64,000 nucleotides of DNA from a virus. The stretch covers positions 7,132 through 71,131 of the IMG/VR virus record IMGVR_UViG_3300005654_000003. One strand, written 5' to 3'. Positions within the stretch are counted from its first letter, which is position 1. Every line of letters starts with the position of its first letter. The notes below the pieces were generated by a model. It was not told where the DNA came from, ran no database searches, and worked only from the letters and a program-made list of their open reading frames with translations. Made by a program: the position numbers and the translations under genes. Below, one piece after another: positions 37,458 through 56,874 of this stretch.

Positions 37458-37458
37458 T

Positions 37459-39223: not shown

Positions 39224-39299
39224 AATATAAAAATAACTAAAGCTGATCGCATTGATTTTTTTAGTATCTTAGTTTTTTTTAAACGCAAAATATAAGAGA

Positions 39300-39650
39300 A
39301 TGCATAAGGATCAAAGAAAAAAGGACATATATACCTTTATAAAGGGGAAATTAAAATGGCATGACCGATTAATTTTTGCATATGTAATGAAACACAATGT
39401 TGGGAAAAGAGTTCTCATGAAGAGAATAGGCAGTGTTTTGGGAATGAAAACATTAATTAATAATGACCTATATACAGAATCAATCATTGGAGACGAATTG
39501 AAAGACCCTATCTTTAATATTCACTATGTTAGAATATATGATAGACTCTATGATTTAGCCAATCTTCATGTAAGTGCTAAGAATGGCGATGGATTCATGT
39601 TAATAGATGAAAAAGGGGGATTTAAACAACGAGATGTTAAACAACAATAA
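39300..39650 (+). CDS. hypothetical protein
   Basis: 116 aa, first gene of a plus-strand operon. Confidence 0.55.
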   Translation: MHKDQRKKDIYTFIKGKLKWHDRLIFAYVMKHNVGKRVLMKRIGSVLGMKTLINNDLYTESIIGDELKDPIFNIHYVRIYDRLYDLANLHVSAKNGDGFMLIDEKGGFKQRDVKQQ

Positions 39651-39658
39651 ATAAAACG

Positions 39659-39928
39659 ATGGAATTTACAGAAGACGAATTAACAACTCTGGCCATATAT
39701 GCTCAAAAGTTTGACATGATGACCTTCAAAGAAAAGGCGAATGATATGTTAAGATCTAAAAAAGAAGCAATTACAGAAGATAGTTATGAAGATCTATACA
39801 ATGAAGCCGTAATAGAGATAGATGGATTAGAGTCGGAGATATGTGAGCTGGATAGAACCAATCAAAGATTAGAAGATGAAATTGATGGCTTAAATCAAGA
39901 AATATTATCATTAAAAAACGAACAATGA
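39659..39928 (+). CDS. acidic coiled-coil protein
   Basis: Heptad C-terminus IDGLESEICELDRTNQRLEDEIDGLNQEI. Confidence 0.6.
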   Translation: MEFTEDELTTLAIYAQKFDMMTFKEKANDMLRSKKEAITEDSYEDLYNEAVIEIDGLESEICELDRTNQRLEDEIDGLNQEILSLKNEQ

Positions 39929-40512
39929 ATACGCCTACAATAAATACGGCTTTTGAAGATTTAAAAACCATTGTTAAAGAATCCACAATAGATCATAATG
40001 ATGTACATAAATATAATATGTCATTAACTATTACAGATCCAGATAGTAGTGACATACCTTATGACATTAAAGAAATTGTAACTGCTAAATTAGATTTCTA
40101 TATGAATGGTGATTTATCTGTACCTCCATCACTACGACATCACTATGAGCATTTAATAAATGAGATAGGCAAGGTGAATTCTAACTATGGATGGCAAATG
40201 AAAAGGGCTATGCAGTTTGATATTGCTACAGAGAAACTTTTACATAATCCTGATTCATTAGATGCTTATGTAACTATATATGACGGTAAAGAGCAATCTC
40301 AACATGCTTACGACTCGCCTAACATACTTTCTATCGGTTTTCAGGCAGTTAATAACAAATTACATGTAAATGTACACATCAAGTCCTTTTCTGTCCACAA
40401 TGAGTTCCTACATGAGTCTTTATTGATTTTACAATTTTCACAAATGGTGGCCAGATCTTTATCGATGAGATTAAAACAAATTCATTTTTCTATTGACAAC
40501 TTAACTACCTAA
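39925..40512 (+). CDS. degenerate thymidylate synthase / dCMP hydroxymethylase (T4 gp42-like) homolog
   Basis: GKVNSNYGWQ and LLHNPDS match gp42-like motifs; the catalytic Cys and RSxD motifs are replaced. Confidence 0.65.
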   Translation: MNTPTINTAFEDLKTIVKESTIDHNDVHKYNMSLTITDPDSSDIPYDIKEIVTAKLDFYMNGDLSVPPSLRHHYEHLINEIGKVNSNYGWQMKRAMQFDIATEKLLHNPDSLDAYVTIYDGKEQSQHAYDSPNILSIGFQAVNNKLHVNVHIKSFSVHNEFLHESLLILQFSQMVARSLSMRLKQIHFSIDNLTT

Positions 40513-40518
40513 TTACAC

Positions 40519-40842
40519 ATGCAGATAAAAAAACACAAAATACGCCTCTATAAAAGGGCAATTAAAAATACATCTACACATCTATGGGAAGTAGAAAATC
40601 ACTGTAGTTACGCCTTCGATGCTCTAAATGCTAGAGAACAAATAGAATGTGCATGGTATCATTGCAAGAGACTAAAGGAAGAATTAGAGGAAAATTTCAA
40701 TGCAGATGAATACGATTACTATCTAAAAGAATCGAGTCGATTGAATTTAAAGATGAAAAATCTTGATAAGCAGATCGAATACTACTGCTCCAATGATAAA
40801 AAATATTGCATTGATACTGTACCCATGCAAATTCGTTCATAA
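40519..40842 (+). CDS. hypothetical protein
   Basis: 107 aa, last gene of the operon before a terminator. Confidence 0.6.
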   Translation: MQIKKHKIRLYKRAIKNTSTHLWEVENHCSYAFDALNAREQIECAWYHCKRLKEELEENFNADEYDYYLKESSRLNLKMKNLDKQIEYYCSNDKKYCIDTVPMQIRS

Positions 40843-40878
40843 CAAAAAAGCCCCAAGGATTTCTCCAAGGGGCTTTAC
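40843..40878. terminator. intrinsic terminator between convergent operons
   Basis: AAAAAAGCCCC...GGGGCTTT inverted repeat. Confidence 0.7.
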
Positions 40879-40899
40879 TGTTTACAGTTAATAGTAAAC

Positions 40900-41133
40900 T
40901 TATTTCACTGTATCTACTACTATAGTATCATTGATCACTGTATCAATTGGCATTACAATTGCCGTATCTACTACGGTACTATCTCCAATATTCAATTTAT
41001 CATTTACTGTCTCTTTAAAATCTGGAATTAAGAAGTAAGCTATTACGCCCACTACTGCAATTACTGCTACTGCTGTCTTTGTTCCTTTACTTTGGCCTTG
41101 AATCCAAGCCCATACTTTGTTTAATGTTTCCAT
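40900..41133 (-). CDS. small membrane protein with DT-rich exported tail
   Basis: TM AVAVIAVVGVIAYFLI; tail DSTVVDTAIVMPIDTVINDTIVVDTVK; TATATTTG upstream (about 41162-41169). Confidence 0.7.
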   Translation of the reverse strand: METLNKVWAWIQGQSKGTKTAVAVIAVVGVIAYFLIPDFKETVNDKLNIGDSTVVDTAIVMPIDTVINDTIVVDTVK

Positions 41134-41184
41134 TGTTAATTTTTGTGTTTAGTTACAATGCAAATATAGTAAACTATTTGAAAC

Positions 41185-41212
41185 AAAAAAGCCCCTATTG
41201 CAATAGGGGCTA
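41185..41212 (-). terminator. intrinsic terminator
   Basis: AAAAAAGCCCCTATTGCAATAGGGGCT, perfect stem; U-tract on the minus strand. Confidence 0.7.
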
Positions 41213-41313
41213 ATTTGCTCTTAACAAATAAAAAATATGAAAAATAAAGAACAATCATGAAACAAAAACATGAGTCCAAAACCATAAATCAAATATATAA
41301 CATTTTTTTCTAA

Positions 41314-41347
41314 TAAAAAAGCCCCTACCAAATAAATGATAGAGGCT
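41314..41347 (-). terminator. intrinsic terminator after tail tube gene
   Basis: AAAAAAGCCCCTA...TAGAGGCT imperfect stem; U-tract on the minus strand. Confidence 0.55.
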
Positions 41348-41385
41348 AGGGTCTAATAATATCTCATATTAGAGTAGTTAATCTA

Positions 41386-41940: not shown

Positions 41941-42564
41941 TTATTTCTTCTTTCTTGCAGCCCAACTTTTCTTGGATGCTTCCGACAATTTTTTTCTTGT
42001 TTCCTCCGATATACCCCTAGCACATCTTTTTTTTGCACTAATGGACATCTTGGTTTTTTGCTCATCAGTTGCTTTTCGCCCTAAATGAATCTCCCTCATT
42101 CGCCTTTTAAACCCATCAGTCCTTTTCTTGCCTTGATTTGCAAGTGATATTTTACGCTTTGTCTCTTCTGACATCTTCATGCCCTTTGTTGGCGACACTC
42201 TTCCTTTAAATGCCTTGGACACCTTATCTTTAGTTTCCTGCGAATGCTTTTTGCCTGTATTATATATTCTTAATTTCTCTTTTGTAGAAGCAGCACATGG
42301 GCTTGATTTGCCACCAGATTCTATATTGTAGAACAAGCTAGATTGGTCAGCACCATAGTACTCTATATAGTATTTTTCCAAATCATTTAATTGACTAGAG
42401 TCTTCTGCATGAGCTAAGATTTCTTTTTTAAAATTCTCTTTACCGTACTTATTTATTGCTTTTTTAATTAATGTTCCAGAACCATAATAGGCAGGATTGT
42501 CATTGCAATCCTGCCCTATGTATTTTCTTCCGTTAACTAAATTAGTGGTACAGTAAACAATCAT
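41941..42564 (-). mobile_element. free-standing GIY-YIG homing endonuclease with NUMOD3-type repeats (Seg-like)
   Basis: IVYCTTNLVNGRKYIG...YYGSG...KYGKENFKKEIL...LEKYYI; HSQETKDKVS and MSEETKRKIS repeats. Confidence 0.88.
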
Positions 42565-44205: not shown

Positions 44206-44271
44206 CTATAATCGTTTGAAAAGTTTGTAATATAAAAATAACTAAAGCAAAACTTATGTGTTTTGGGTGCT

Positions 44272-44625
44272 CTAGCTTAGTTTTTCTTTTGTCATAATCG
44301 CTTTCCATTCTTCTATTGGAAATTGATGCATTGAATACTTCTTTACTAAGAAGTTCTTATTGAATCCACGAATATTTGCTTGTTTACAAAAATCAAAAGC
44401 AGACATGGGCATATAGTCTTTTATTTCTACCCCTGCAAATTCTTCCAACGCCATTTCTGCTGCCAATGGCTGCACTTCTTCTACTTTATGCAGACTGTCT
44501 GCATCGTTTGAAGTTGATGTAAGAGACTGACTATTAAGTACATCAAATAACTCTTGCTTTGTGCTTTTTGGATCAAAATCAATACCTAAGTATTGTAATT
44601 CACGAATAATATCTTTTTTTGTCAT
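44272..44625 (-). CDS. hypothetical late protein with N-terminal HeH/LEM-like module
   Basis: TKKDIIRELQYLGIDFDPKSTKQELFDVL; late-type motif upstream. Confidence 0.55.
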   Translation of the reverse strand: MTKKDIIRELQYLGIDFDPKSTKQELFDVLNSQSLTSTSNDADSLHKVEEVQPLAAEMALEEFAGVEIKDYMPMSAFDFCKQANIRGFNKNFLVKKYSMHQFPIEEWKAIMTKEKLS

Positions 44626-44681
44626 AACAATTTATTTATATAAATATAATTATTATGAGAATGAGTGAATTATGTACTCAT

Positions 44682-45221
44682 TCATTTCAAGATAGATCCA
44701 TGTAGAGTAGTGACTGCCATCCACGCCTTTTGTATTCTAACGCTGTGATACTCTCTATACAGGCAGTCAACAAAGAACTGATGTTCTTTGAGATACATAT
44801 CTAGCTTCTTTTTATTTCCAGACTTCCATGAATACCTTAAATTACAATATCGATCCGCTAATTTAACTATCAATGCGGACTCATTATTAATGAGATGTGC
44901 GTATGTTTTTAACTTTCGATCCTTCCGATGCTCACCATCTTCATCAGTTACGTCACATATGATTGCTGCCGTCTCAGTATTGGGACATGCATCTACTAAA
45001 TCAAACCAATGAATACCTGTATCTTCTAGGATGTCATGAAGAGCTCCTGCTATTATTTCATCTTCTGTTGCATTCCATTTCATTAAGACCCCTACCACTT
45101 GACTTAAATGATATATGTACGGCTTATTACCGTACATTTGGTTTCCATGGTACTGAGTAGCTAATTTGAACGCTTTTAGAAGATCAGTCATTGTTGTTCG
45201 TTTGGGTAAAACTCTGGCCAT
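44682..45221 (-). CDS. HD-domain hydrolase of the RelA/SpoT family (small alarmone hydrolase / Mesh1-like)
   Basis: AFKLATQYHGNQ, KPYIYHL, AGALHDILEDT, VTDED, IVKLADRYCNLR. Confidence 0.85.
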   Translation of the reverse strand: MARVLPKRTTMTDLLKAFKLATQYHGNQMYGNKPYIYHLSQVVGVLMKWNATEDEIIAGALHDILEDTGIHWFDLVDACPNTETAAIICDVTDEDGEHRKDRKLKTYAHLINNESALIVKLADRYCNLRYSWKSGNKKKLDMYLKEHQFFVDCLYREYHSVRIQKAWMAVTTLHGSILK

Positions 45222-45421
45222 GTTTCAATGGCATATGATTTATTTACTGTATAACAGTTCATAGCACAAATTTCTTCAAGGGCATATAAGTCATGAATAT
45301 CTTTTTTAGATTGATTTCTACCAACTATTTTATTTCTATTGGTGGCTAATGTCTCTAAATGCTTATCTATATTAGCCAATTCATCTGGGCTTAAATGCTT
45401 TCTTAAATGTTTGTATTCCAT
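45188..45421 (-). CDS. hypothetical protein
   Basis: 77 aa ORF. Confidence 0.55.
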   Translation of the reverse strand: MEYKHLRKHLSPDELANIDKHLETLATNRNKIVGRNQSKKDIHDLYALEEICAMNCYTVNKSYAIETWPEFYPNEQQ

Positions 45422-45570
45422 GTTATGTTTTGATTGAGTATAAATGTAACAATTATTGTCGCATATTGTTACGATATTTGCGACAAAATTACTACTACTC
45501 TTTATGCTTTTTCTTTCTTGTGTACTTCTTCTTATCCTTATGTACCTGAGTAGAAGCCTTTAACGATCCA

Positions 45571-45843
45571 TCATGAGGATTGATCATTCTGCTTTTTTTC
45601 TTCTTTGTAGAAGATTTGTCCGCTTTCTTTGAATGCTTTTTTGAGCTCATCTAACTGTTCTTTGGTTAATTCCTTATCAAATGTGAGCAATCCTTGTGGA
45701 TTCTTACCGTTTCTTTGATCACTAACTGCTTTTGAAATGTCAGTAAATTTGCTGAGCTTCACATACAGTTTGCTATATATGGGTGTCCAAGTAAACCAAA
45801 AAGGTACTGTCCAACCTCTAACTCTCTTTTGCCACCACTTCAT
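45571..45843 (-). CDS. hypothetical protein
   Basis: 90 aa directly after the RNA ligase. Confidence 0.5.
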   Translation of the reverse strand: MKWWQKRVRGWTVPFWFTWTPIYSKLYVKLSKFTDISKAVSDQRNGKNPQGLLTFDKELTKEQLDELKKAFKESGQIFYKEEKKQNDQSS

Positions 45844-45844
45844 A

Positions 45845-46753
45845 TCAAAATACCATTGGTAAATGTTCCTTCACTTTACTGATCGTACAGTTAAGCAATC
45901 TCTTAAAATCTATTGTTGGATTCTTGTGCTCTTTTATGAAATTCCAGCAGTCTTCTCTCACTAGATCGTAATAGACCGTGTTTAAGAGCCTTGGAATGTA
46001 TTTACTACTCCAATCACCCATATCATTCTCTATCTTGGCCTGAATCTTCTCACAGAGGGCTTTAGTCACGTATTTGTCCACTATCTTTCTTTCCACTGGC
46101 ACAAATTCCACTTCTGGTGCTCCCATAGTCTTTGTATGCACTTCTTTGAACTCAGAGGTGACAAACTTAGCCCACGTGACTCTACCGTATTTATTCACGT
46201 AACCATAACGCTTCACTACTACACCCTCTCCAACTCCTTTTCCATCTTCTACTAAGAATTTATTATTGTATTTTGCCTGAAATATTATGTCATCTTCTGA
46301 TGGAAATGATAATATCTTGATTGGTGGAATGTAATCTATCTGGTATTCTTCTAATAATGGCTGGTACTCTTCATATGTCCAATACCTATATGACCCATCT
46401 GGATTATCTTCTACTACATCGAATACATAGAACTTATTTAATGCTTCTTTTCTGTAATTCTTGAAACTGTGCTGCACGAGCCATTCACCAAATACCCTTA
46501 ATGCTGGATAGTGATGTAACAATAAATTGATACCAGCATGCTCACTCACGTACCCATAGAAGCCTCTATTATCTCTTTCTCCTAGCTCTAATGTTCTATT
46601 TCTTGATCCAGCTCTAGTAATGCCCGTTATATCTTTCCACACTGATGCATTTGTTCCATCCAGTTTTGGAAATATATAGCACTTACCGTCCAATATTCCA
46701 TTCACTTCTGTTGTTCCTAACCTACAAAGGCTTTGGTATTTGTTAAATTCCAT
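45845..46753 (-). CDS. ATP-dependent RNA ligase (Rnl2-like)
   Basis: Motif I PKLDGTNASV, VFGEWL, FYVFDV, GEGVVVK, WAKFV. Confidence 0.85.
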   Translation of the reverse strand: MEFNKYQSLCRLGTTEVNGILDGKCYIFPKLDGTNASVWKDITGITRAGSRNRTLELGERDNRGFYGYVSEHAGINLLLHHYPALRVFGEWLVQHSFKNYRKEALNKFYVFDVVEDNPDGSYRYWTYEEYQPLLEEYQIDYIPPIKILSFPSEDDIIFQAKYNNKFLVEDGKGVGEGVVVKRYGYVNKYGRVTWAKFVTSEFKEVHTKTMGAPEVEFVPVERKIVDKYVTKALCEKIQAKIENDMGDWSSKYIPRLLNTVYYDLVREDCWNFIKEHKNPTIDFKRLLNCTISKVKEHLPMVF

Positions 46754-46772
46754 GAAACAAACTTAAATAAAA

Positions 46773-47186
46773 TTATAGAGAATCTACGTAATCCTGAATG
46801 ATTTTGTGCATCTTGGTCTTAGATAAGGGCTTTCTAAGGAAACTACCAACTTGTTTAAATGCTTTTGCTTTTTTAATGTCAGCATCGTCATACGAGTTAC
46901 TCACCATGGCAATTAAGGTAATTTTATCTGAATAAGGTAATGCTATGAACTCATCTAAGAACTCCCATCCATTCATTACTGGCATATTTATATCCAGAAG
47001 CACAAGTGATGGTAGCGGTTCACCATGTGCATGGCAGTCTTTTATATGGTTAATTGCCTCTAATCCGTTATAAGCTACCCTTATTTCATCTACAGTTACA
47101 GATGAGTCCTTAATTAATATCTTATTTAAGAAATTAGTGGCCTCATCGTCATCTACGAGCATTATTGATTCTATACGATTTATCAT
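46773..47186 (-). CDS. single-domain response regulator (receiver)
   Basis: IMLVDDD, LVLLDINMPVMNGWEFL, MVSNS, FLRKPL. Confidence 0.95.
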   Translation of the reverse strand: MINRIESIMLVDDDEATNFLNKILIKDSSVTVDEIRVAYNGLEAINHIKDCHAHGEPLPSLVLLDINMPVMNGWEFLDEFIALPYSDKITLIAMVSNSYDDADIKKAKAFKQVGSFLRKPLSKTKMHKIIQDYVDSL

Positions 47187-48301
47187 TCCAGTTGTTTGTT
47201 TATGGTGAAAAAGAAATCTGATCCACCTATTTTATTACCCTTTACCCATATATTGCCGTCATGTAAAGAAACTATTTTTTTACAATGTGATAGTCCAATA
47301 CCTATACCTGCATACGCATGTCTATCATGTAGTCTCTGGAATAATTTAAACACCCTGTCTTGATGTTCTTTTGGAATTCCGATGCCGTTATCTGATACGC
47401 AGAATTCATAATGGTCTTCCTTGTCAATACAGGAAATCTCTATCTCTGGTGTAACGCCCTCTCTAACATACTTAATGGCATTAGATATGAGATTTTGAAA
47501 GAGCATTTGTAGCTCTAATCTATAACCCTTTACCGTTGGTAGACTTTTTACTTTGATATTTGATTCAATACCTACTTCACCTTTGTCAATAGAAAAGTCA
47601 ATAACAGACTTCACTAAGTTATTACAGCTAATGGCATTAGATAATGGCGACCTACCTAACTTAGAATAAGCCAATATGCCCTTAATTAATTTACTCATAC
47701 GAACAGTAGAGTCGGCTACGAATTCTAAACTCTTTTTACCTGTCTCATCTAATTTGTCTTTATACTCATCTATAATGAAGTCGCAATAAGACTGAATGAT
47801 TCTCAATGGCTCTTGCAAGTCATGTGAAGCGATGTAGGAAAATTCTTCTACTTCTTTATTCTTTTGTCTTAAATCGCTTATCTTATTCTTTAAAGCCTCA
47901 TTTTTCTTTTCCAACTCTTTTCTTGTTACAACCTGATCAGTAATAACTTCTGTGAACATAATAATTCCTTTGATCTCATCTAAGTTGTTTCTCCATGGTC
48001 TAAGCTCAGCTCTGATATATACTATTGATCCATCGTCTCTTACCCATTCTTCTTCTTCTGACCTCCATACCTTGCCACGCAAAGTATCTTGATGGTCTTG
48101 TTTCCAGCGTTCTAAAATATCTGGAAATACTTCATAGTGAGATCTACCGTGTAAATCTTGATCGCCTAGCTCATAATCTTTGAGCCATCTGTCACTATAT
48201 GCAATATACTCTATATTCTCATTGAACATAGCTACTGCTGCTGGTACGTGCTTAATTAAAAACCTAAAGTTATTTGTGCTATTTTGAACCATTGCTGTCA
48301 T
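47183..48301 (-). CDS. cytoplasmic PAS-domain sensor histidine kinase
   Basis: PAS (YSDRW...GRSHYEVFP...W..DDG), coiled coil, H-box SHDLQEPLR, N-box QNLISNAIKY, DNGIGIP, FKLFQRL, GIGIGLSHCKKIV; no TM segment. Confidence 0.96.
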   Translation of the reverse strand: MTAMVQNSTNNFRFLIKHVPAAVAMFNENIEYIAYSDRWLKDYELGDQDLHGRSHYEVFPDILERWKQDHQDTLRGKVWRSEEEEWVRDDGSIVYIRAELRPWRNNLDEIKGIIMFTEVITDQVVTRKELEKKNEALKNKISDLRQKNKEVEEFSYIASHDLQEPLRIIQSYCDFIIDEYKDKLDETGKKSLEFVADSTVRMSKLIKGILAYSKLGRSPLSNAISCNNLVKSVIDFSIDKGEVGIESNIKVKSLPTVKGYRLELQMLFQNLISNAIKYVREGVTPEIEISCIDKEDHYEFCVSDNGIGIPKEHQDRVFKLFQRLHDRHAYAGIGIGLSHCKKIVSLHDGNIWVKGNKIGGSDFFFTINKQLE

Positions 48302-48686
48302 TTATTAATGAAGAAATAAACTCATCTGTGATTTCTTCTTTGTGTACGACATTCTTGTAGATGCGATCTAATCTTTTTGCACCCTCTTCACTTGAAGTCA
48401 TAATAACGATTTTAACATCACCTACTAAATCTTTGATAATGGGCAAGCTGAATTCACCATCCATGCCATTTAAAGAATTATCTAATAAGACAAGCCCATA
48501 CTCTTTATCTGTGAGCATCCATGTAGCCTTTTCTACACTATCGATTGAATCTATGAATACATTGGGATGCTTGTTGAACTTTTGTGTTAATAGAAACACA
48601 TAAGCATCTGAATCTTCTATGATCAAGACATCTAATCTTTTTTGCTTTTTACTGAACGAAAACATATTTTTAACTGCATTTAACAT
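48279..48686 (-). CDS. single-domain response regulator (receiver)
   Basis: VLIIEDS, LVLLDNSLNGMDG, IVIMTSS, VVHK. Confidence 0.9.
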   Translation of the reverse strand: MLNAVKNMFSFSKKQKRLDVLIIEDSDAYVFLLTQKFNKHPNVFIDSIDSVEKATWMLTDKEYGLVLLDNSLNGMDGEFSLPIIKDLVGDVKIVIMTSSEEGAKRLDRIYKNVVHKEEITDEFISSLINDSNGSK

Positions 48687-48715
48687 GATACTATAAAAAT
48701 AAGGAATTCAAACGA

Positions 48716-48898
48716 TTAATTCTCTATATGATAATATTCGATTTTTACAACCATTGAATGATCAAGTTCATATAGACCAGCAGCCATACATGCCTCAGCT
48801 TTGGTGTCAAATAACCTAAAGCTGCCGTCTTCATTTTTAAAATAGTCATTCATGTCTGCATTAATAATGATATACTTGCCCTCTAACGATCTGCTCAT
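48716..48898 (-). CDS. hypothetical protein
   Basis: 60 aa, ATGA-coupled. Confidence 0.55.
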   Translation of the reverse strand: MSRSLEGKYIIINADMNDYFKNEDGSFRLFDTKAEACMAAGLYELDHSMVVKIEYYHIEN

Positions 48899-49122
48899 AT
48901 ATTGTTATTATCATGTATGTCTAAATAGTCCTGTATTATCAGATTAATATTTAATAGTTCTTTTCTGCGAGAATTTAACCTTACTTTATCTTCTGACTTA
49001 TATTCCATGTCATCACAGCACTTAGCTACTGGTAAATTAGATTTGGTGTGTAGCCTATGTATTTCAGACATCACGTCCGCCTTACGGGCGTATATTTTAT
49101 CTAAAAATGCTTTTCTAATCAT
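48895..49122 (-). CDS. hypothetical protein
   Basis: 75 aa, ATGA-coupled. Confidence 0.55.
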   Translation of the reverse strand: MIRKAFLDKIYARKADVMSEIHRLHTKSNLPVAKCCDDMEYKSEDKVRLNSRRKELLNINLIIQDYLDIHDNNNI

Positions 49123-49367
49123 ATCTTTGGCCCTTTAATTGTTGCCCAATGTGTTACTGGATATTCTTTATCTTCATCTATCCATCCCTTTTCAGATACC
49201 CTCTGTCCTAACTCACTATCCTGAAAAGTCATGAAATACTCGTTAAACTCCATCTCTCCATCACTTAGTCTTGTAAGTACTGGATAACTGGCTAGAGTCA
49301 TTGCATGCTGCACAGTGGCATCTGGCAACCTATCCTTTACACTCACCCACTCTATCTGTTCTATCAT
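49119..49367 (-). CDS. DUF551-like phage protein
   Basis: EWVSVKDRLP...VTHW pattern. Confidence 0.7.
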   Translation of the reverse strand: MIEQIEWVSVKDRLPDATVQHAMTLASYPVLTRLSDGEMEFNEYFMTFQDSELGQRVSEKGWIDEDKEYPVTHWATIKGPKI

Positions 49368-49690
49368 ATCTCCTTGATTTCTAATCTATCTGCCAAGGCA
49401 TAGCTCACAACCTTATCAACCAAATCTGTCAATTGGCTATGGCCATTCAGCATCTCATTCAACATCTTTTTATCCTCTGCCTTATCTAGTACGTATTTTG
49501 TACGCTCAGATAACGCCTTAGCAAACTGATTTCCGTGATACTTTATCTTCTGCAAGTATAAATCCTGATCTTCTATGTGTTCAAAGTCATCTAAGGCCAC
49601 CTGCATTGCACACAACACCTTTAATATTCTTCTACGTTCAGTAAGAGTCACAAATTCTACTGGCTTTTCTATTCGCATTATTTTTTCCAT
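49364..49690 (-). CDS. hypothetical protein
   Basis: 108 aa in a tight operon. Confidence 0.55.
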   Translation of the reverse strand: MEKIMRIEKPVEFVTLTERRRILKVLCAMQVALDDFEHIEDQDLYLQKIKYHGNQFAKALSERTKYVLDKAEDKKMLNEMLNGHSQLTDLVDKVVSYALADRLEIKEI

Positions 49691-49694
49691 ATCT

Positions 49695-50477
49695 TTATTT
49701 TTTAAATGAAATTGATGTACCGTAATCTTTATTGATCATTTCTAAAATCTTTATTTGACCTTTTGGCCTTATCTTGACTACTTTATATGACTTATTGTTT
49801 TTTACAACTGCATTCACTTCCATCCAGCCAGCTTTGATATATTTTTGGAATGGGGTATTATAATCTTCTTTAGTCTGTAGCACTTCTTTTTCTCTTAAAT
49901 ACTCATACAATTTATTTCTACCGAACGTCTTACTGCATTCTAATTCTAGCTTGCTATGTATCAACTTAGAATAATCACCTACGCCAATTGCATTGTCAGT
50001 ACCCATGAACGCTTCTGCATAATTTAAAAACGGTCTACACTCCGTTAGTCCTTTTTCTAGCTCTTCATTTCTAGCTGCCATTTTAGCTGCCTCAAAAAGA
50101 GCTGCTGCATAAGTCTGTGGTAATGCATGCTGGTGTGTTCTATGCTTTTTTTCTATATCGATATAATACTGTCTTGCTAATTTACCTTTTGGTGTCTTTT
50201 GAACCATAGCTATATGCTTACTGGTATCTAATGTAAGAGCATAGTCTAATTTCTTTACTGATGGTGCTCCTTTTGTCGGGTGTACCAAATGGTACACACG
50301 CTGATAATCAGTGTGTTCCGAAAATCCATAGCTCAGCATGCGATCCATCCATTTTGAGAATCTTTCCTTCAATTCTAGGAAAGTATATAGGTCTCTTGCA
50401 GAGGTTACTTGTCTACCTTTGTCATCTATACTAATGGGCATAGCTATCTTTATTAATTCATGTATTTTATCTTCCAT
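49695..50477 (-). CDS. phage antirepressor-like protein (AntA/AntB N-terminus + KilAC C-terminus)
   Basis: TSARDLYTFLELKERFSKWM...DY...DYALTLDTSKHIAMVQKT.KGK.ARQYYI; LPQTYAAAL; GRNKLYEYLR...PFQKYI; TAACTTTG upstream at 50495-50502. Confidence 0.85.
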   Translation of the reverse strand: MEDKIHELIKIAMPISIDDKGRQVTSARDLYTFLELKERFSKWMDRMLSYGFSEHTDYQRVYHLVHPTKGAPSVKKLDYALTLDTSKHIAMVQKTPKGKLARQYYIDIEKKHRTHQHALPQTYAAALFEAAKMAARNEELEKGLTECRPFLNYAEAFMGTDNAIGVGDYSKLIHSKLELECSKTFGRNKLYEYLREKEVLQTKEDYNTPFQKYIKAGWMEVNAVVKNNKSYKVVKIRPKGQIKILEMINKDYGTSISFKK

Positions 50478-50527
50478 TGTGTTAAATTTTGCTTCAAAGT
50501 TAATACATTAATATGTATTTATCAATT

Positions 50528-50857
50528 TTACACATATACATTATGCTCTGCCCTAAATAAATTATTTCTTAGATCATCCCACGTAGGCACTATCTCGTAT
50601 CTACTTTTGAATTCTTGTTCACCCATCATTTCAAATTGACCGTGCATATGCTTAATGGTATAGCACCCTTCCAGTGCCACTGCTATTAATTTGTCATCAG
50701 CATCCAGAAACATCAATTTTTTAATATCTGCCATCTCTGCACGAACAATGTCATGGTATTCACCTACAAACTCGATCAGCTCCTTTTCATTCTTACCGTC
50801 AAAGAATATCGCATATAGCGACTGTATCTTTGGTACATATAGTCTTGCGTTCTTCAT
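50528..50857 (-). CDS. hypothetical phage protein
   Basis: YAIFFDGKN...EQEFKSRYE pattern; start moved to ATG 50857. Confidence 0.6.
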   Translation of the reverse strand: MKNARLYVPKIQSLYAIFFDGKNEKELIEFVGEYHDIVRAEMADIKKLMFLDADDKLIAVALEGCYTIKHMHGQFEMMGEQEFKSRYEIVPTWDDLRNNLFRAEHNVYV

Positions 50858-50859
50858 AT

Positions 50860-51042
50860 CTACTCTGCTACACTTGTTACGAATACAAATACAACTCTTA
50901 AAAATACAAAAGCATATGCAAGCCTGACCCATATATTCCAATCCAAGCAATCAATTGTTCCAGCTACAAAAGCCAAAACAAGGTAAACGACAAATAATGT
51001 GGTGAGGGATGCGAATATATTCCAGAAAATTTTGCTTATCAT
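50860..51042 (-). CDS. small two-TM membrane protein
   Basis: Hydrophobic segments FASLTTLFVVYLVLAFVAG and LAYAFVFLRVVFVFV; start ATG 51042. Confidence 0.55.
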   Translation of the reverse strand: MISKIFWNIFASLTTLFVVYLVLAFVAGTIDCLDWNIWVRLAYAFVFLRVVFVFVTSVAE

Positions 51043-51105
51043 AATGTAACCTTTTATCTTTGTTTTACGTGTAAGACTAATATAAACCAAATAAACCATA
51101 ATACC

Positions 51106-51420
51106 ATGGATAGCCTTTTAGTAATGATGATGCTTGCAACTTTCAATAATTTTTCAGAATTTCAACACACCGTTGTTGATGATAATACTGTTTTTCATGT
51201 AGTACACTTAGAAGATGGAAACAGATTAATGATTGAAGAGACTTTTGATCCTTATAGTATTTCGTTTGTTGCTGATCAATATGATGAAGACACTTTTATT
51301 TTTAGAGGATATTGGACTGACTATACAGAATATGTGATTGAAGTTGGTGTCAATGGCCACTATGATTCACCAGTACTGCATGCCTTACTGGCCCAAAAGA
51401 ACAATGTTAATGAGCCATAA
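51106..51420 (+). CDS. acidic hypothetical protein, possibly exported
   Basis: 104 aa with hydrophobic N-terminus; lone plus-strand gene. Confidence 0.55.
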   Translation: MDSLLVMMMLATFNNFSEFQHTVVDDNTVFHVVHLEDGNRLMIEETFDPYSISFVADQYDEDTFIFRGYWTDYTEYVIEVGVNGHYDSPVLHALLAQKNNVNEP

Positions 51421-51664
51421 TTGGCCGTCCGTTGTAATAATATAGATTTTTAATCACATCCTCTTCCTGTCTCATAAGCATTTGTATATACTCTTTGTAT
51501 GCCACTGAGTCATTAAAGATTCTAGTCGATAGCTGTATTGTATCATTATACACTACTTCTGTATCTACATAAACTACTGAGTCATTATACATGCATGGAT
51601 CACTCACTCTTTGAGCTTTTGCGTTAAGGCTGAAAAGTATTGCTGGTATAATTAAATATTTCAT
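51407..51664 (-). CDS. small exported protein
   Basis: Signal peptide MKYLIIPAILFSLNAKA/Q; DSV and DTI motifs. Confidence 0.6.
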   Translation of the reverse strand: MKYLIIPAILFSLNAKAQRVSDPCMYNDSVVYVDTEVVYNDTIQLSTRIFNDSVAYKEYIQMLMRQEEDVIKNLYYYNGRPIMAH

Positions 51665-51741
51665 TGTGTTGTTTAAAGTTAAAAAAAGCTAGTCTTTCCT
51701 AGCAGTCAAAACTCAATCCAGATAAAAGGAGGTGTCAGTTG

Positions 51742-51886
51742 TAATCAAAGTAGGACTCGAACCTACAATCTTACACTTAATGTATTTCAGTGCAAAACAT
51801 ATTGTTAGTAAGGTAAAGTTTCAAACCTTAATACATGCGGTCTTTCCTCTCTCTAACTCAGTGTCTACCAATTCCACCATTTGATT
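51742..51886 (-). ncRNA. tRNA-like RNA (Leu-type acceptor, D and T arms) with an expanded, non-canonical central region
   Basis: Minus strand: AATCAAA/TTTGATT acceptor stem plus discriminator A; D arm TGGTGGAATTGGTAGACAC; T arm GTAGG-TTCGAGT-CCTAC; 94 nt between D and T arms with no recognisable anticodon stem-loop. Confidence 0.7.
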
Positions 51887-51892
51887 ATATCT

Positions 51893-52408
51893 TTACTTAA
51901 ATTTCTTAATGATATGATTCAATGTTCCTTTACTTGAAATATTGAATTTCTCCATTGTTTTTTTATATGACCTAACACCGCAGTAGTATGCATATACCGA
52001 TTCATGTGCATGTTTAGTGTTAAAAGATGCTGCATGTTCTGCATGAGCCTGTCTTACCGCCTGTGGTCTGTCCATCATGTTTTCACTAGCAGTGCCAATG
52101 GCAATATTGTCAAACGAATTATCCAATGGATTGCCGTTTAGGTGTCTTACAACCATACCTTTTTCAAACATTTTCATTCCAAACTTCTGGAATGCTTGCA
52201 ACCTATGCACCCTAAGTCTTGCATGCTTGCCATCTACTCTGAAAGATATTTCTTTATATAGGTGATTTCCTCTACCTGCTTCTTTACATACTCGTTGAAC
52301 CCCTGTAGAAGATATTAGTTCTCCTTCCTTGGTTACTTTATATCCTGCTGCATGTGCATTAATTACTGCTCTGCTGTTTCTGCTTAATTCATCTTTTACT
52401 GTTTCCAT
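51893..52408 (-). mobile_element. HNH homing endonuclease
   Basis: RVHRLQA...VVRHLNGNPLDNSFDNIAIGTASENMMD; TATATTTG upstream. Confidence 0.88.
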
Positions 52409-52429
52409 GTCTCAAATATACAGATTATT

Positions 52430-52867
52430 TCAATACAGTACCAAAAATAACAAAGCTAGTGATGCTAAAAACGCAAACCACGTTAAATAAGACACTTTCT
52501 CTTCTAATGTGGCAATATGTTCCTTAGATACCATTAAGTCCTTTTGTAGCTCATGTATGTCCCTAGCATTGCTTTCTATTACTACTTCATAAGCTCTGAA
52601 TTTAGAATAATCGTCTTCATTGGTGAAATCGGACTTGCTTCGCTTATTCTTATAGTTATCCATAGATGCCTTCATGCTCAATCTATCTTGATGGATAGAC
52701 TCTATTTTCTGCATGTTCTTTGTACCGACATCTAATGCACATTGGCACACTGGAACAACGGATGCCTTGGATATACCCTTAACAATGCCACCATCCGCCA
52801 TCTTATAGCCCTTTTGAGCTTCTTCTATTGTACCATGTATCTTACCGCACTTGTCACACTGGATCAT
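52430..52867 (-). CDS. hypothetical protein (CxxC N-terminus, coiled coil, C-terminal TM)
   Basis: QCDKCGK; ends LTWFAFLASLALLFLVLY. Confidence 0.55.
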   Translation of the reverse strand: MIQCDKCGKIHGTIEEAQKGYKMADGGIVKGISKASVVPVCQCALDVGTKNMQKIESIHQDRLSMKASMDNYKNKRSKSDFTNEDDYSKFRAYEVVIESNARDIHELQKDLMVSKEHIATLEEKVSYLTWFAFLASLALLFLVLY

Positions 52868-53138
52868 TTTGTTTTTCCTTTTCTGATTTAAAGAAATTTA
52901 ACAAAAATGAATAATCTTCAATCAGCTCTGTTACCACTCCATTGATTAGCAGTTCGTTGTTTTTACGCTTTGTAAATTTCCCCTCTCGCTTTAAATCAAC
53001 AAATACGTCCATTTTTTCATGTATTGTAAATGACTTAAAGTGTGCTATTTCTAAATCTGAATGTTTTTTGCTCATAACGACTCCTGTAGCTTTTGTTTTA
53101 ATGTTTTCCAATTTAGCTTTTCTCCGCAATTGGGGCAA
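52854..53138 (-). CDS. hypothetical protein
   Basis: 94 aa ORF. Confidence 0.5.
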   Translation of the reverse strand: MPQLRRKAKLENIKTKATGVVMSKKHSDLEIAHFKSFTIHEKMDVFVDLKREGKFTKRKNNELLINGVVTELIEDYSFLLNFFKSEKEKQNDPV

Positions 53139-53338
53139 TAGTTGTTTCTAATTATATACCCTAACCTACCATCCATGAACTCTAATGGATCTTCTGTACT
53201 CTTTTTAAAAGCAGTATGCTTATATACTTCATTTATTCCTGCATTCATGCAAGCACCCTCCTTCAATAATATTATATAGTTATCCACATATAAATCCATG
53301 TCGTCAAACTCTCCTATTCTGTGATTACACTGGCTCAT
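53072..53338 (-). CDS. small zinc-ribbon protein
   Basis: QCNH...NYCPNCGEKL. Confidence 0.6.
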   Translation of the reverse strand: MSQCNHRIGEFDDMDLYVDNYIILLKEGACMNAGINEVYKHTAFKKSTEDPLEFMDGRLGYIIRNNYCPNCGEKLNWKTLKQKLQESL

Positions 53339-53454
53339 ATATATCCTTTATCGTTTAACTGTAACCATGCATTGCAGTCTGATAAACTGCCCTGAAAAGC
53401 TGTTGAATTATCTATCGTGTTTATTACTTGATATGTGTCGTCCATAAAAAGCAT
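53335..53454 (-). CDS. small hypothetical protein (39 aa), not in the ORF track
   Basis: MLFMDDTYQVINTIDNSTAFQGSLSDCNAWLQLNDKGYI*; fills the gap with an ATGA overlap. Confidence 0.4.
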   Translation of the reverse strand: MLFMDDTYQVINTIDNSTAFQGSLSDCNAWLQLNDKGYI

Positions 53455-53458
53455 TACT

Positions 53459-53917
53459 CTATATTGTTTTTCCATCTGTCATTTTATCTAAATATTTATA
53501 CCAATCTTCATGTGTTAAAAATGGCTCTGGACATGTACAGACTGCTGTAACCTGATTCTGTCCTATATTTGGATTTCCTATTATAAACCCCGTAGCCCTT
53601 TGCTCATCTGTTGCACTCAATACACCTCTACATCCTATACATCTATATGGCTTTAGCATCATTTTTCGTGCCTCTTCTATATCATAGCTCATTGGATTCT
53701 CGTTATCGCATTGAGGAATATGCACTGGCTTTAGACTCTTGAATCTTTCCATGTGCTCACTAAACACCTCATCTCTTGTCTTAGACCACCAATTCAATAT
53801 CTTAGAGTTTCTATCATTAACCAATGACTCTAGCTTCGTGATATATTTCAATACGCTTATTGGCGTTGTTCGATAATCCTCTTCTGCGTTTTCTTTCCAG
53901 TATTTGATGTCTTTCAT
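53459..53917 (-). CDS. hypothetical protein
   Basis: IKYWKENAEEDY.TTPISVLKYI.KLE N-terminus; CxxC..CxC C-terminus. Confidence 0.6.
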   Translation of the reverse strand: MKDIKYWKENAEEDYRTTPISVLKYITKLESLVNDRNSKILNWWSKTRDEVFSEHMERFKSLKPVHIPQCDNENPMSYDIEEARKMMLKPYRCIGCRGVLSATDEQRATGFIIGNPNIGQNQVTAVCTCPEPFLTHEDWYKYLDKMTDGKTI

Positions 53918-54330
53918 TTCTCAACTAATTTCATTTCTTTTTTGAATAGGGTTCTGTTTGTTGCTCCTATCATATTTCCATTAAGTTCATAGGATGTAGA
54001 AGTGCATTCACTTTCAAAGTCAACTTCAATATAATTTGATTGTTTTGCTAAATAATCAACAACCCCCCAACCATAAACAAAATCCCAAACCTTTTCTCCT
54101 ACCTTCCATTCTATTTTTTGTGGCAACCCACTTAAATCAAACCCATCCGATAAATTACATTCTCCATAGCCTTTCAGTGCTGACAAATCAAATTCTTCTA
54201 TTTCAGGTCGCTCAATTACTGTGAACTCATCACTCATTAATGACTTTTGTGTTACGTAAAGCCTCAAATGATCACAGATGGCGTCTAATTTTAATTCTAA
54301 GTACTTTATTCTTTTTTCTTTGTTATTCAT
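53914..54330 (-). CDS. hypothetical protein
   Basis: WKVGEKVWDFVYGWGVV SH3-like C-terminal domain. Confidence 0.6.
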   Translation of the reverse strand: MNNKEKRIKYLELKLDAICDHLRLYVTQKSLMSDEFTVIERPEIEEFDLSALKGYGECNLSDGFDLSGLPQKIEWKVGEKVWDFVYGWGVVDYLAKQSNYIEVDFESECTSTSYELNGNMIGATNRTLFKKEMKLVEK

Positions 54331-54497
54331 TTCTCTATTTTTCTTGATGTCATAAACCCGTGAATAATTACCAATGTCAATAAGTGCCCAAAGTTTAAAT
54401 CCTTTATGTTAGTAAGCCTAGATTCATTTAAGGTTGATTCACTACATCCACTTAATAAAAAACACGCCACACATCCTATTATTATTTTATTTTTCAT
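54327..54497 (-). CDS. small lipoprotein (56 aa), not in the ORF track
   Basis: MKNKIIIGCVACFLLSGCSESTLNESRL...IEK*; LSGC lipobox; ATGA overlaps at both ends. Confidence 0.6.
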   Translation of the reverse strand: MKNKIIIGCVACFLLSGCSESTLNESRLTNIKDLNFGHLLTLVIIHGFMTSRKIEK

Positions 54498-54739
54498 GTG
54501 CTTATTTTCTTAATTGCATTTAACTCTATTTTGATTCCTCCATGCTCATTTTGTTTTGGAACAATAATATTTTGGAGTCTAAAGTTTTGAGTTAAATCTA
54601 CCTCACATCCATCTGCTAAATTAAGACCAGTCAAGTCAATGGTTTCTAAATCCGTATATTTTATAACAATGTTTGTAACTCCGTTATCTATTTTAATTCC
54701 AAAAATCCTTGCTATTATTTTTTTAATTTTATTTTTCAT
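54494..54739 (-). CDS. hypothetical protein
   Basis: 81 aa, ATGA-coupled. Confidence 0.55.
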   Translation of the reverse strand: MKNKIKKIIARIFGIKIDNGVTNIVIKYTDLETIDLTGLNLADGCEVDLTQNFRLQNIIVPKQNEHGGIKIELNAIKKIST

Positions 54740-54939
54740 TTCTTCATTTTTACTAATACGGTGTTTTCCAACTCATTTATTTGCCCATTTTCTGTGAAAG
54801 TATGGTACAAGTTTTCGCCAAATTTAACACATATTGGGTATGTATTGCTAACATTGGTAGAAACAACCTTGCCAACACCCCTTTCTTTATCCATAACCTT
54901 ATCATTTACTTTAAATCTTAATTCTTCTCTATTTGCCAT
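54736..54939 (-). CDS. hypothetical SH3-like protein
   Basis: FKVNDKVMDKERGVGKVV...YPICVKF...FTENG; similar to the C-terminus of the 53914 ORF. Confidence 0.6.
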   Translation of the reverse strand: MANREELRFKVNDKVMDKERGVGKVVSTNVSNTYPICVKFGENLYHTFTENGQINELENTVLVKMKK

Positions 54940-55150
54940 AATCTATTTTTTTAGCTTTGTTAATCTTTTCTTTGCCTGCTTTGGTTAGTCTTAACTTGAA
55001 TTTGTTATTCATAGCACAAAAAAGTGAGAAGAAACTATTTTTACCCCTCCATCCATAGTCTGCATAATACTCAACATCACTCGGCTCAACCCATCCCTTT
55101 TTTAATGCCTTTAAAATATGCCAGTGTTTCTTTAAATCTTTTCTAGTCAT
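54929..55150 (-). CDS. hypothetical protein
   Basis: 73 aa ORF. Confidence 0.5.
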   Translation of the reverse strand: MTRKDLKKHWHILKALKKGWVEPSDVEYYADYGWRGKNSFFSLFCAMNNKFKLRLTKAGKEKINKAKKIDYGK

Positions 55151-55152
55151 AA

Positions 55153-55692
55153 CTAATATTGTGTGTTTTTATAAAATTCTTCACCTCTATCGCAGAATGA
55201 TCTTACCATTGATCTAACCAATCCATAAGACATTCCTGAGTGACCTTGTTCGTCTATTATATTCTTTGCTTCTTTCATGTCACATCCTTCGTTTAAGGGC
55301 TTGATTATAGCTAAGCACATACCTAGCTCCATTCCATTATATAAGTCTCCTAATCGTATTGGTACGCATTCAGTCCAATACTCCATATATTTTTCATCTA
55401 AAACCGCTTTGCCTTTATCTAACCACTGTTTAGTTAGGCTTGGAATTGACATAATGTGTTCTTTTTTGATTCGCTTTCGACTTTCCATTTGCCTATTCAC
55501 GTATGCATCGTGATCAGCTTTGTTTTTACCAGTGATCTTCATATATGCTGAATCTAAATGATCTACGTCATTGTATAGCATTACGCCATTGAATTCAGCT
55601 TTATATAGTCCATCTAATGATTTAAGCTCTCTCATAGCATCTTCTATGGTATATCCAGCAGCCAAATCTATTTCTTTATATTCCTTTTTCAT
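55153..55692 (-). CDS. hypothetical phage protein
   Basis: 179 aa; WTECVPIRLGDLYNGMEL...QGHSGMSYGLV; TATATTTG just upstream. Confidence 0.65.
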   Translation of the reverse strand: MKKEYKEIDLAAGYTIEDAMRELKSLDGLYKAEFNGVMLYNDVDHLDSAYMKITGKNKADHDAYVNRQMESRKRIKKEHIMSIPSLTKQWLDKGKAVLDEKYMEYWTECVPIRLGDLYNGMELGMCLAIIKPLNEGCDMKEAKNIIDEQGHSGMSYGLVRSMVRSFCDRGEEFYKNTQY

Positions 55693-55705
55693 TTGATCAA
55701 ATATA

Positions 55706-56503
55706 TTAATCTTCTACTAAGCTACCAAACTTCCAATTCCTTGTCAAGTCATTTAGTTCATCTTTCCATTTTTTATTTTTGTTGCTAATAGATACTGTTT
55801 CTGCTGACCAAAACCTTGGCTTATTTAATACGATACGATCTAAGCCGCCTTGATATTCAATATCAGCATATCTTTGGGTACGCTTCTTTATTCTTTCCTC
55901 TATATTCGTTAACCGTTCTATCTTAAAAAATGGTTCTGGCCTTGGCGTATGCTTTTCGATTGGCTCAGGTCTTTCGATTGGCCTATATTCTGGTATTGGC
56001 TCAGGGTCTTTTCTTTGTACTTCTACCTTATGGTTAAATTCCTCAATAATTCTTTTAGGCTTCTTTTTAGTCTCTTTAATAATCTTCTTAGTAGCTTTCC
56101 TCTCTTCTTTAGCCTTAGCTCTCTTTTCTTTTTGCCTTGCTAACTTTGCTTTTTTACGTTCCTCAGCTCTTTCTGCCTCAGCCATCTCTTGCCAATACCG
56201 TTTTTCTTCTAACCTGATACGCTCTCTTTCCTCTGCCCATAATCGATCATGGGTGTCCCCTGTGACCTTACAATGAATATCTAGCTTAGATACATCTGGA
56301 TATTCTGGCCATCCATTATAACCTTTAATGTCATATTCTGGTGGATAATGTCCATGACTAAGTATGTGTCCATGACCGTTGGCCATTTCATGACTGATCA
56401 ATGAATGATACATGCCATGCTCACGATATGCACTTTGACTGACAAATTGCTTATGACCTTGCTCTATATTACAGTTGAAATGTAAGTTTGGTTCTGATCT
56501 CAT
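55706..56503 (-). CDS. hypothetical protein with K/E/R-rich helical region
   Basis: His-rich N-terminus, charged centre, PEP repeats. Confidence 0.55.
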   Translation of the reverse strand: MRSEPNLHFNCNIEQGHKQFVSQSAYREHGMYHSLISHEMANGHGHILSHGHYPPEYDIKGYNGWPEYPDVSKLDIHCKVTGDTHDRLWAEERERIRLEEKRYWQEMAEAERAEERKKAKLARQKEKRAKAKEERKATKKIIKETKKKPKRIIEEFNHKVEVQRKDPEPIPEYRPIERPEPIEKHTPRPEPFFKIERLTNIEERIKKRTQRYADIEYQGGLDRIVLNKPRFWSAETVSISNKNKKWKDELNDLTRNWKFGSLVED

Positions 56504-56790
56504 TATTTTTTGCTTAAATAAAGATTATTACGCCTCTGTGCATACCTTTTAAGTTTCTTTTGCTTTATGTATCGATTATACATTGTTGAGTTCTGTTCAT
56601 GTAATGAATGGGGTCTTACTGTCCATGACTTGACCTTTTTACGTGTACTAGCCTTACGATCTATTACATGATAGCCATTAGGGCTCGTCTGGAACATTAC
56701 TTCTACTTCGTAAACGACTCCGTTCTTTTCAAAATATCTTTTTTCTCCTACCATGAAAACAAATCTATAAAAAAGTAAAGTGCCACGCAA
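56503..56790 (-). CDS. hypothetical basic protein
   Basis: 95 aa, coupled to the downstream gene; start uncertain. Confidence 0.45.
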   Translation of the reverse strand: MRGTLLFYRFVFMVGEKRYFEKNGVVYEVEVMFQTSPNGYHVIDRKASTRKKVKSWTVRPHSLHEQNSTMYNRYIKQKKLKRYAQRRNNLYLSKK

Positions 56791-56805
56791 GCAATTAGTT
56801 AGGAA

Positions 56806-56834: not shown

Positions 56835-56874
56835 AGAGACTATCTCTGTCTCATCTATATATATGTGTCATTTG

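Follow-up and report, generated by a model that had tools for sequence, protein, structure and literature searches.

The 64,000-nucleotide stretch of viral DNA analyzed here (the window; positions 7,132 to 71,131 of the 71,221-bp IMG/VR record IMGVR_UViG_3300005654_000003) contains, on its minus strand, a two-component signaling cassette made up of a stand-alone receiver (RR1), a PAS-domain histidine kinase and another stand-alone receiver (RR2). Together with a short motif in front of it, the cassette occupies positions 46773-48701 (all coordinates are window positions), and its three open reading frames (ORFs) are tightly packed and overlapping. RR1, a divergent receiver, has 135 residues (48279-48686, minus strand; Pfam family Response_reg), the kinase 372 (47183-48301, minus strand; PAS_4, HisKA and HATPase_c) and RR2, which belongs to a Bacteroidota/Rcp1-like class of single-domain receivers, 137 (46773-47186, minus strand; Response_reg). 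The end of RR1 overlaps the start of the kinase by 23 nucleotides (nt), and the kinase stop overlaps the RR2 start by 4 nt (ATGA). Alternative starts exist for two of the genes, i.e. M8 of RR1 (at 48665, giving 128 residues), which was picked by one gene caller, and M4 of the kinase (giving 369 residues), which was picked by a gene caller on another contig.

The Pfam matches of all three proteins exceed the gathering scores, and the guanine-plus-cytosine (GC) content of the three genes is 32-35%, compared to a phage mean of 34.9%. No 19-residue window in RR1, the kinase or RR2 reached a mean Kyte-Doolittle hydropathy of 1.6; all three proteins are therefore predicted to be soluble, because they lack a hydrophobic segment. 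A first-pass annotation of this DNA had described three overlapping minus-strand genes for a receiver, a soluble PAS kinase with all of the catalytic boxes and another receiver, with both receivers retaining the acidic pocket, phospho-Asp, Thr/Ser and Lys and neither having an output domain. The ORF coordinates and overlaps, the Pfam matches, the family alignment, the hydropathy scan and the individual residues bear out this description throughout.

The kinase and its two receivers

The kinase is built from three domains, i.e. a PAS sensor domain (residues 11-123; 47933-48271, minus strand; PAS_4, 31.3 bits), a dimerization and phosphoacceptor (DHp) domain containing H160 (residues 140-216; 47654-47884, minus strand; HisKA, 40.1 bits with a cut-off of 26.9) and a catalytic ATP-binding (CA) domain with the N, G1, F and G2 boxes (residues 255-370; 47192-47539, minus strand; HATPase_c, 85.3 bits with a cut-off of 26.4). 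In an 11-sequence alignment of the kinase and ten homologs, H160 within SHDLQEPLR, N274, D304/G306/G308, F318/F321 and G332/G334 were invariant. The DHp and HATPase_c domains, the H-box histidine and the N, G1, F and G2 boxes place the protein in the HisKA class and, judged by its sequence, it carries every residue required for autophosphorylation on H160. Matches to the NCBIfam two-component equivalogs (PhoR, WalK, PorXY, LuxQ/O and others) all fell far below the curated cut-offs, the best reaching 170 bits compared to the 1200 set for LvrA.

More than 7,000 homologs of the kinase were found. The best of them, P0002, is 53% identical and lies on a 2.8-kb contig with bacterial-looking neighbors; the next ones are 40-47% identical, and those with a name belong to Bacteroidota of marine or soil origin (e.g. 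Roseivirga, Cyclobacteriaceae, Aquimarina, Cellulophaga, Owenweeksia, Dokdonia and Chitinophagales). In a tree of the DHp and CA domains the kinase falls inside a clade of 81 sequences (SH-aLRT 98) whose named members are Bacteroidota, and the kinases of other viral contigs are scattered elsewhere in the tree rather than grouped with it. This placement of the other viral kinases in other branches points to independent captures and not to a phage clade. The first-pass annotation had raised the prospect that the cassette is conserved in related phages and forms such a clade, and this is not the case; as described below, the closest relatives lack the cassette, and its kinase nests among those of Bacteroidota.

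The domains of the kinase differ in how well they are conserved. The PAS domain is the best conserved, being 61-66% identical to those of the bacterial kinases P0002, P0034, P0042 and P0043, and the DHp domain is only 29-32% identical to those of P0034, P0042 and P0043, which have the same PAS subtype. In this kinase family the DHp domain determines the choice of partner. A conserved PAS domain combined with a diverged DHp domain suggests that the kinase receives the same kind of input as its bacterial counterparts and that its output has been rewired or insulated. We infer that the cue sensed by the PAS domain is intracellular and of the kind to which the 61-66% identical bacterial domains respond. 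Its closest solved structure is PDB 3luq (E-value 1e-28), which was deposited only as 'Sensor protein', and the kinase core resembles solved structures of the bacteriophytochrome and HK853 types.

P0043 was found at three loci (L008, L009 and L010) on bacterial contigs of 34.5-36% GC, where it is a 354-residue kinase with a PAS domain 65% identical to that of the phage kinase. One of these contigs comes from a sequencing run with an accession number close to that of the phage-bearing run, and the three loci are a possible pointer to the host lineage.

RR2 is a conventional receiver. Its Response_reg match (49.4 bits) covers profile positions 1-111, i.e. the full profile, and D12-14, D65, S96 and K119-P120 align with the corresponding residues of its relatives, placing it among the CheY-like receivers. 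Its 593 homologs are 40-47% identical and mostly from Bacteroidota. The PDB matches include 3ilh (E-value 4e-20; deposited as 'Two component response regulator'), Rcp1 (1i3c, E-value 5e-8) and the phytochrome-associated receivers RcpA and RcpB (1k68 and 1k66). Bacterial kinases of the same architecture have a single-domain receiver gene downstream that overlaps the kinase stop as RR2 does (4 nt); among 72 related bacterial loci the receiver was downstream in 36, upstream in 9 and on both sides in 4, including a locus from a marine Dokdonia.

These Bacteroidota pairs of a soluble or membrane-bound PAS-HisKA kinase and a CheY-like receiver, e.g. P0043 with a 133-residue receiver on L008 or the receiver-kinase-receiver locus of Dokdonia sp. 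R86516 (L067), have the PAS_4-HisKA-HATPase_c domain order and the H-box SHDLQEPLR in common with the phage kinase, and their receivers are 35-47% identical to RR2. The phage cassette differs from them in its location in a phage, in the phage motif in front of it and in its diverged DHp domain. Judged by sequence and gene order, there is nothing unusual about the kinase and RR2 as a bicistronic pair of the Bacteroidota type (40-53% identity).

The likeness to Cph1-Rcp1 and bacteriophytochrome systems extends to both proteins, since the DHp and CA domains match 8uph and 9ys3 (E-value 1e-26), RR2 matches the Rcp1, RcpA and RcpB structures, and signaling via a stand-alone receiver is a shared trait. 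We rejected a phytochrome-type photosensory kinase (Cph1/BphP) as a candidate, as Pfam found a single PAS_4/PAS_3 domain and neither a GAF nor a PHY match. There is no indication of light sensing, because the kinase lacks a PAS-GAF-PHY photosensory core.

RR1 is a different kind of receiver. Its Response_reg match (38.6 bits) covers only profile positions 1-83 of 111, although it keeps E24/D25, D69, T97 and K116. A word-based search with RR1 returned its own copies only, and an exhaustive HMMER search of 1.84 billion representative proteins found one true relative, P0243 (36% identity, E-value 3e-18), all other matches being generic receivers with E-values of about 1e-7 or weaker. P0243 lies alone on a 1-kb contig of 28% GC (L046:294-698), with no kinase adjoining it. 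The study that yielded this contig also contains bacterial kinases with the same PAS subtype. RR1 and RR2 have no detectable similarity beyond the phospho-Asp loop, and RR1 is likewise unrelated to any of the upstream receivers of the bacterial loci (26% identity, E-value 0.002).

An AlphaFold2 (AF2) model of RR1 from a single sequence was useless (pLDDT 40.6), whereas a model built with a small alignment gave the complete (beta-alpha)5 fold of five strands and five helices (pLDDT 92.9). This model has more than 400 receiver matches in the PDB, with no single one standing out. As modeled, RR1 is highly divergent and yet a complete receiver, with its phospho-acceptor pocket preserved. A complex prediction for RR1 with a dimer of the DHp and CA domains of the kinase scored 0.06, which counts neither way.

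The phage genome, the accessory island and the putative transcription unit

The record is estimated to be 72% complete. The same phage is present, with the same gene order, as a 98,868-bp contig in a Logan assembly of a marine metagenome, and the two assemblies are 100% identical over the 16,976 bp that were fetched around the cassette. Because of the length of this contig we put the genome at ∼99 kb, and because the independent assembly is identical the join between cassette and phage is no artefact of one assembler. The description in the first-pass annotation of a jumbo phage, for which the criterion is at least 200 kb, does not fit such a genome, nor does it fit the 103-kb genome of the nearest cultured relative.

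Among the gene products of the window are a DNA polymerase, an SbcCD-like nuclease, a DnaB-like helicase, a major head protein (phrog_752), virion proteins, a tail sheath and homing endonucleases. Pfam and phrog matches confirm that the genes flanking the cassette are all phage genes, i.e. those for the major head protein, virion proteins, Ant, an HNH endonuclease, an RNA ligase, the tail sheath and a homing endonuclease. That the phage is lytic is plausible, as no tyrosine integrase (Phage_integrase match) was found in the 71 kb of the record; it is nevertheless unproven, because a homolog of the anti-repressor Ant (Pfam) lies 1 kb upstream of the cassette and the scan covered ∼72% of the genome.

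The nearest cultured relative is Chryseobacterium phage MA9V-3, in which the sheath is 43% and the capsid 59% identical, and more distant relatives are Bacteroides phages. These relatives make a Bacteroidota host likely.

Comparison of gene order with MA9V-3 and with the IMG/VR contig L127 delimits an accessory island of ∼12.7 kb (44206-56874, minus strand) that contains the cassette and comes between the structural modules for head and tail. In MA9V-3 the homolog of 56875-57630 is followed by the sheath gene within ∼200 nt, and in L127 the homolog of 58120-58905 is followed by the sheath gene ∼1 kb further on. No kinase or receiver is present at the corresponding head-sheath junction of MA9V-3 or L127, and no Response_reg or HATPase_c gene was found anywhere in the MA9V-3 genome. 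The cassette is therefore an accessory acquisition of this lineage and is not conserved in the group. The rest of the island consists of many small ORFs, the HNH endonuclease, Ant, the RNA ligase and an HD-domain protein. Gene order is otherwise similar to that of MA9V-3, except that another accessory island (35312-41385) lies between the tube gene and the homolog of 34928-35311 and that a GIY-YIG/NUMOD3 homing endonuclease gene (41941-42564) is wedged between the sheath and tube genes.

The motif at the head of the cassette, TATTTTTATA (48692-48701, minus strand), ends 5 nt before the RR1 ATG and is a putative phage late promoter element. There are nine exact copies, all on the minus strand, compared to 1.4 expected, and none of 100 shuffles reached nine. 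Eight of the nine are 1-25 nt upstream of ORF starts, and at most sites the motif is extended by TTTART to TTTARTTATTTTTATA. One copy (44231-44240) lies 25 nt before the start of the tail sheath gene, in agreement with the first-pass annotation, which had reported the motif 5 nt ahead of the cassette and also ahead of the sheath gene. A relaxed form, TATWTTTATA, occurs at 13 sites (2.4 expected), including sites before the major head protein, sheath and tube genes. Late co-expression of the cassette, which the first-pass annotation had proposed, is a fair deduction from a motif common to structural genes. The ATG of M8 of RR1 is 26 nt from the motif and fits the spacing at other motif sites better than the first ATG does. 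The only copy inside an annotated ORF is at 25227-25236 (minus strand), within 24972-25292; the true start of this ORF may be further downstream, or the copy may be an internal promoter.

The unit that the motif heads probably extends beyond the cassette. An RNA ligase gene (45845-46753, minus strand; Pfam RNA_ligase, PF09414, 69.9 bits; phrog_548) starts 19 nt past the RR2 stop and is probably co-transcribed with the cassette. The last larger gene of the putative unit (44682-45221, minus strand) encodes a 179-residue protein with an HD_4/RelA-SpoT-type hydrolase domain (Pfam HD_4, 36.6 bits; phrog_990), which matches TIGR00691 (spoT_relA) over positions 1-120 with an E-value of 4e-14, below the cut-off. 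It consists of a RelA/SpoT-type HD hydrolase domain only and looks like a small alarmone hydrolase. As no terminator-like site was found between RR2 and the ligase gene, which follows so closely, and the next copy of TATTTTTATA on the minus strand is only at 44639-44648, a transcription unit of ∼4 kb comprising RR1, the kinase, RR2, the RNA ligase, small ORFs and the HD_4 protein is likely. The cassette would thus not be the self-contained three-gene operon of the first-pass annotation, since the unit runs on into the ligase and further genes up to 44639-44648.

Similar cassettes on other viral contigs

A scan of IMG/VR for related kinases had to be alignment-based, as a single-protein query found nothing. 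It returned 33 loci, with a receiver ORF directly downstream of the kinase in 21 of them and a second receiver protein, either stand-alone or with a PAS or unknown extension, in about ten distinct loci. Three of the records concerned are genomes that carry direct terminal repeats (186, 461 and 499 kb), and five are proviruses. On the 499-kb genome (IMGVR_UViG_3300020429_000529) the kinase is followed by two stand-alone receivers (L030:4152-9814). Past these receivers lies a gene for a 915-residue protein with Major Vault Protein repeat and shoulder domains (MVP_shoulder, E-value 2e-25), which is unusual for a phage genome; among the eight larger non-receiver proteins encoded next to the large-genome loci L021, L022, L027 and L030, it is the exception to seven that have no Pfam match.

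A further cassette (L033:4692-7065, on IMGVR_UViG_3300035698_008908) encodes a PAS_3 kinase, a 140-residue receiver and a 275-residue receiver with an unknown C-terminal half. It sits between the capsid gene and the next head gene, i.e. inside the structural module, of a 37.7-kb contig of 62% GC that has the phrog_752 capsid and three head proteins in common with the window phage and is thus a distant structural relative. The kinases of these other cassettes belong to the same family as the window kinase. However, both of their receivers are downstream of the kinase, unlike the window cassette with RR1 upstream, and the second receiver often has a PAS or unknown C-terminal extension.

Among 50,697 phage records, blastn of the locus found no match, and tblastn of the kinase found 119 matches, all below 60% identity and many of them evidently pieces of host DNA catalogued under phage. 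Of the matches to genuine phages, the most convincing was that to Microcoleus phage My-WqHQDG (32% identity over the kinase core).

Phrase searches of a searchable literature library found no paper on a complete phage-encoded kinase-receiver pathway. Bulk surveys of auxiliary metabolic genes list 'two-component system' genes among viral genes, mostly of temperate viruses (PMC9636769), and the only such element mentioned in a comparative study of 224 jumbo phages is a divergent receiver domain, in no case linked to a kinase (PMC7824862). The statement in the first-pass annotation that intact kinase-receiver operons are unusual in lytic phages hence needs qualifying; such operons are recurrent, given the 33 IMG/VR contigs and these surveys, although none turned out to have been characterized already. 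A parallel is the agr cassette of Clostridioides difficile phage phiCDHM1, which likewise has a host-derived histidine kinase as an accessory gene of a myovirus and for which a link between phage and host signaling was proposed (PMC3901668). In contrast to the window phage, phiCDHM1 is temperate, and its AgrC-type kinase is accompanied by peptide-signal genes and by no response regulator; the window phage encodes a cytoplasmic PAS kinase and two receivers and has no signal-synthesis genes.

Interpretation of the cassette

The locus probably represents a functional two-component cassette that was acquired from the host phylum by a ∼99-kb Bacteroidota-infecting myophage and is maintained where a hypervariable accessory island separates its head genes from its tail genes. 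The system itself is of an ordinary kind; its location is uncommon but recurs. According to this interpretation, the phage would express the unit, probably late, together with the RNA ligase and the HD hydrolase. The PAS domain would respond to a cytoplasmic cue, and the kinase would autophosphorylate on H160 and pass the phosphate to RR2 at D65, a partner that is syntenic and probably cognate, and possibly also to RR1 at D69. As neither receiver has an output domain, the receivers would work either through contacts with other proteins or as competitors for phosphate (i.e. as a sink or buffer), and could in this way couple or decouple host phosphosignaling in late infection. The strongly diverged DHp domain suggests that the phage pair would be insulated from the bacterial pair sharing its sensor. 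The roles in lysis timing and in cross-talk with the host that were put forward in the first-pass annotation are speculation.

Several observations count against this interpretation. Phosphotransfer from the kinase to the receivers is a prediction, and RR1 may not be a substrate of the phage kinase at all, because its sole relative is not beside a kinase. The exact cassette occurs in one phage lineage only. The late promoter is put forward on position and statistics; TATTTTTATA was not found in the structural region of MA9V-3, so that its role gains no support from conservation. In a search of sequencing runs, the sequence turned up in no RNA run and in a single DNA run, that of a marine metagenome which is probably the source.

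We weighed this functional reading against explanations in which the cassette has either no place in the phage or no role in infection. A misjoin of host DNA to phage DNA, or host contamination, might be suspected from the bacterial type of the three proteins and from the many 'phage' records with similar kinases that are evidently host fragments. However, phage genes lie on both sides of the cassette, on the same strand and with tight spacing, the second assembler's contig is identical across it, its GC content is that of the phage and the phage motif is directly upstream. An assembly chimera therefore has a negligible probability; chimerism is excluded and effectively refuted. A recently captured kinase-receiver pair of the host could, on the other hand, be a neutral passenger that has no role in infection and is heading for decay. 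Capture would be easy, as the kinase family is extremely abundant in Bacteroidota, and the cassette is missing from the nearest relatives and sits in a hypervariable island with homing endonucleases. Against this, the nearest homolog of the kinase is only 53% identical and yet all of the catalytic residues of the three proteins are intact and the frames overlap tightly; the GC content is fully ameliorated, a phage-type motif precedes the unit, and comparable cassettes have become fixed in many viral lineages independently of one another. The deep divergence, intact motifs and phage-like GC content together argue for long residence under selection rather than recent capture, and we consider a passenger quite improbable.

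Two further explanations grant the cassette a role in infection and differ in what that role would be. In one, the receivers, alone or helped by the kinase in a phosphatase role, would drain or jam host phosphorelays such as Detocs-type defense or abortive stress pathways, making the cassette functional kin of the RNA ligase and the HD protein. The absence of outputs from both receivers would fit such a decoy, as would the place of the cassette in a variable accessory island. The RNA ligase and the RelA/SpoT-type HD hydrolase of the same putative unit would fit as well, because proteins of these kinds typically serve in interference with the host or in repair. There is also a precedent, since DtcB, the stand-alone receiver of Detocs, has been proposed to absorb phosphate (bioRxiv 10.1101/2023.01.24.525353). 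Detocs (DtcA kinase, DtcB stand-alone receiver buffer and DtcC receiver-effector) resembles the cassette in having one kinase and two receiver proteins, one of them stand-alone. However, the cassette lacks a receiver-effector and is encoded by a phage rather than in a bacterial defense island. We rejected membership of Detocs, as there was no profile match to DtcA, DtcB or DtcC and neither receiver has an effector domain; PADLOC gave no match to its Detocs model and only weak matches to unrelated candidate families (E-values 2e-4 and 3e-5). An intact sensor kinase with a well-conserved PAS domain would moreover be superfluous in a pure decoy, and late-type expression would be odd timing for blocking the sensing of infection. 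We regard a decoy as unlikely, though worth serious consideration. In the other explanation, the cassette is a decision circuit owned by the phage. Its PAS kinase would respond to a metabolic or redox signal of the infected cell, and its two receivers, having no outputs of their own, would bind phage or host proteins and thereby tune late functions such as assembly, the timing of lysis or host shutdown. The cassette would then be one case of a widespread, unrecognized class of sensory modules, each with one kinase and two receivers, that have repeatedly been captured by large and medium phages and inserted within or beside their structural modules. This, too, is a tentative proposal that we think doubtful.

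What the cassette would mean for phage biology follows from the functional reading. The sensing systems known from phages (arbitrium peptides, VqmA of phage VP882 and agr of phiCDHM1) mostly belong to temperate phages and use one-component or peptide receptors. The cassette provides a compact and testable example of phage-borne two-component signaling, as its proteins are small and soluble and can be synthesized and assayed without culturing the phage, and RR1 defines a tiny receiver lineage with two known members. Cassettes of a kinase plus two receivers recur across uncultured phages. If the functional reading is true, a complete kinase-to-receiver pathway under apparent late control in a probably virulent Bacteroidota phage would be a different viral way to read or rewire the state of the host, and the same significance would attach to the related cassettes on huge phages whose genomes are complete by their terminal repeats.

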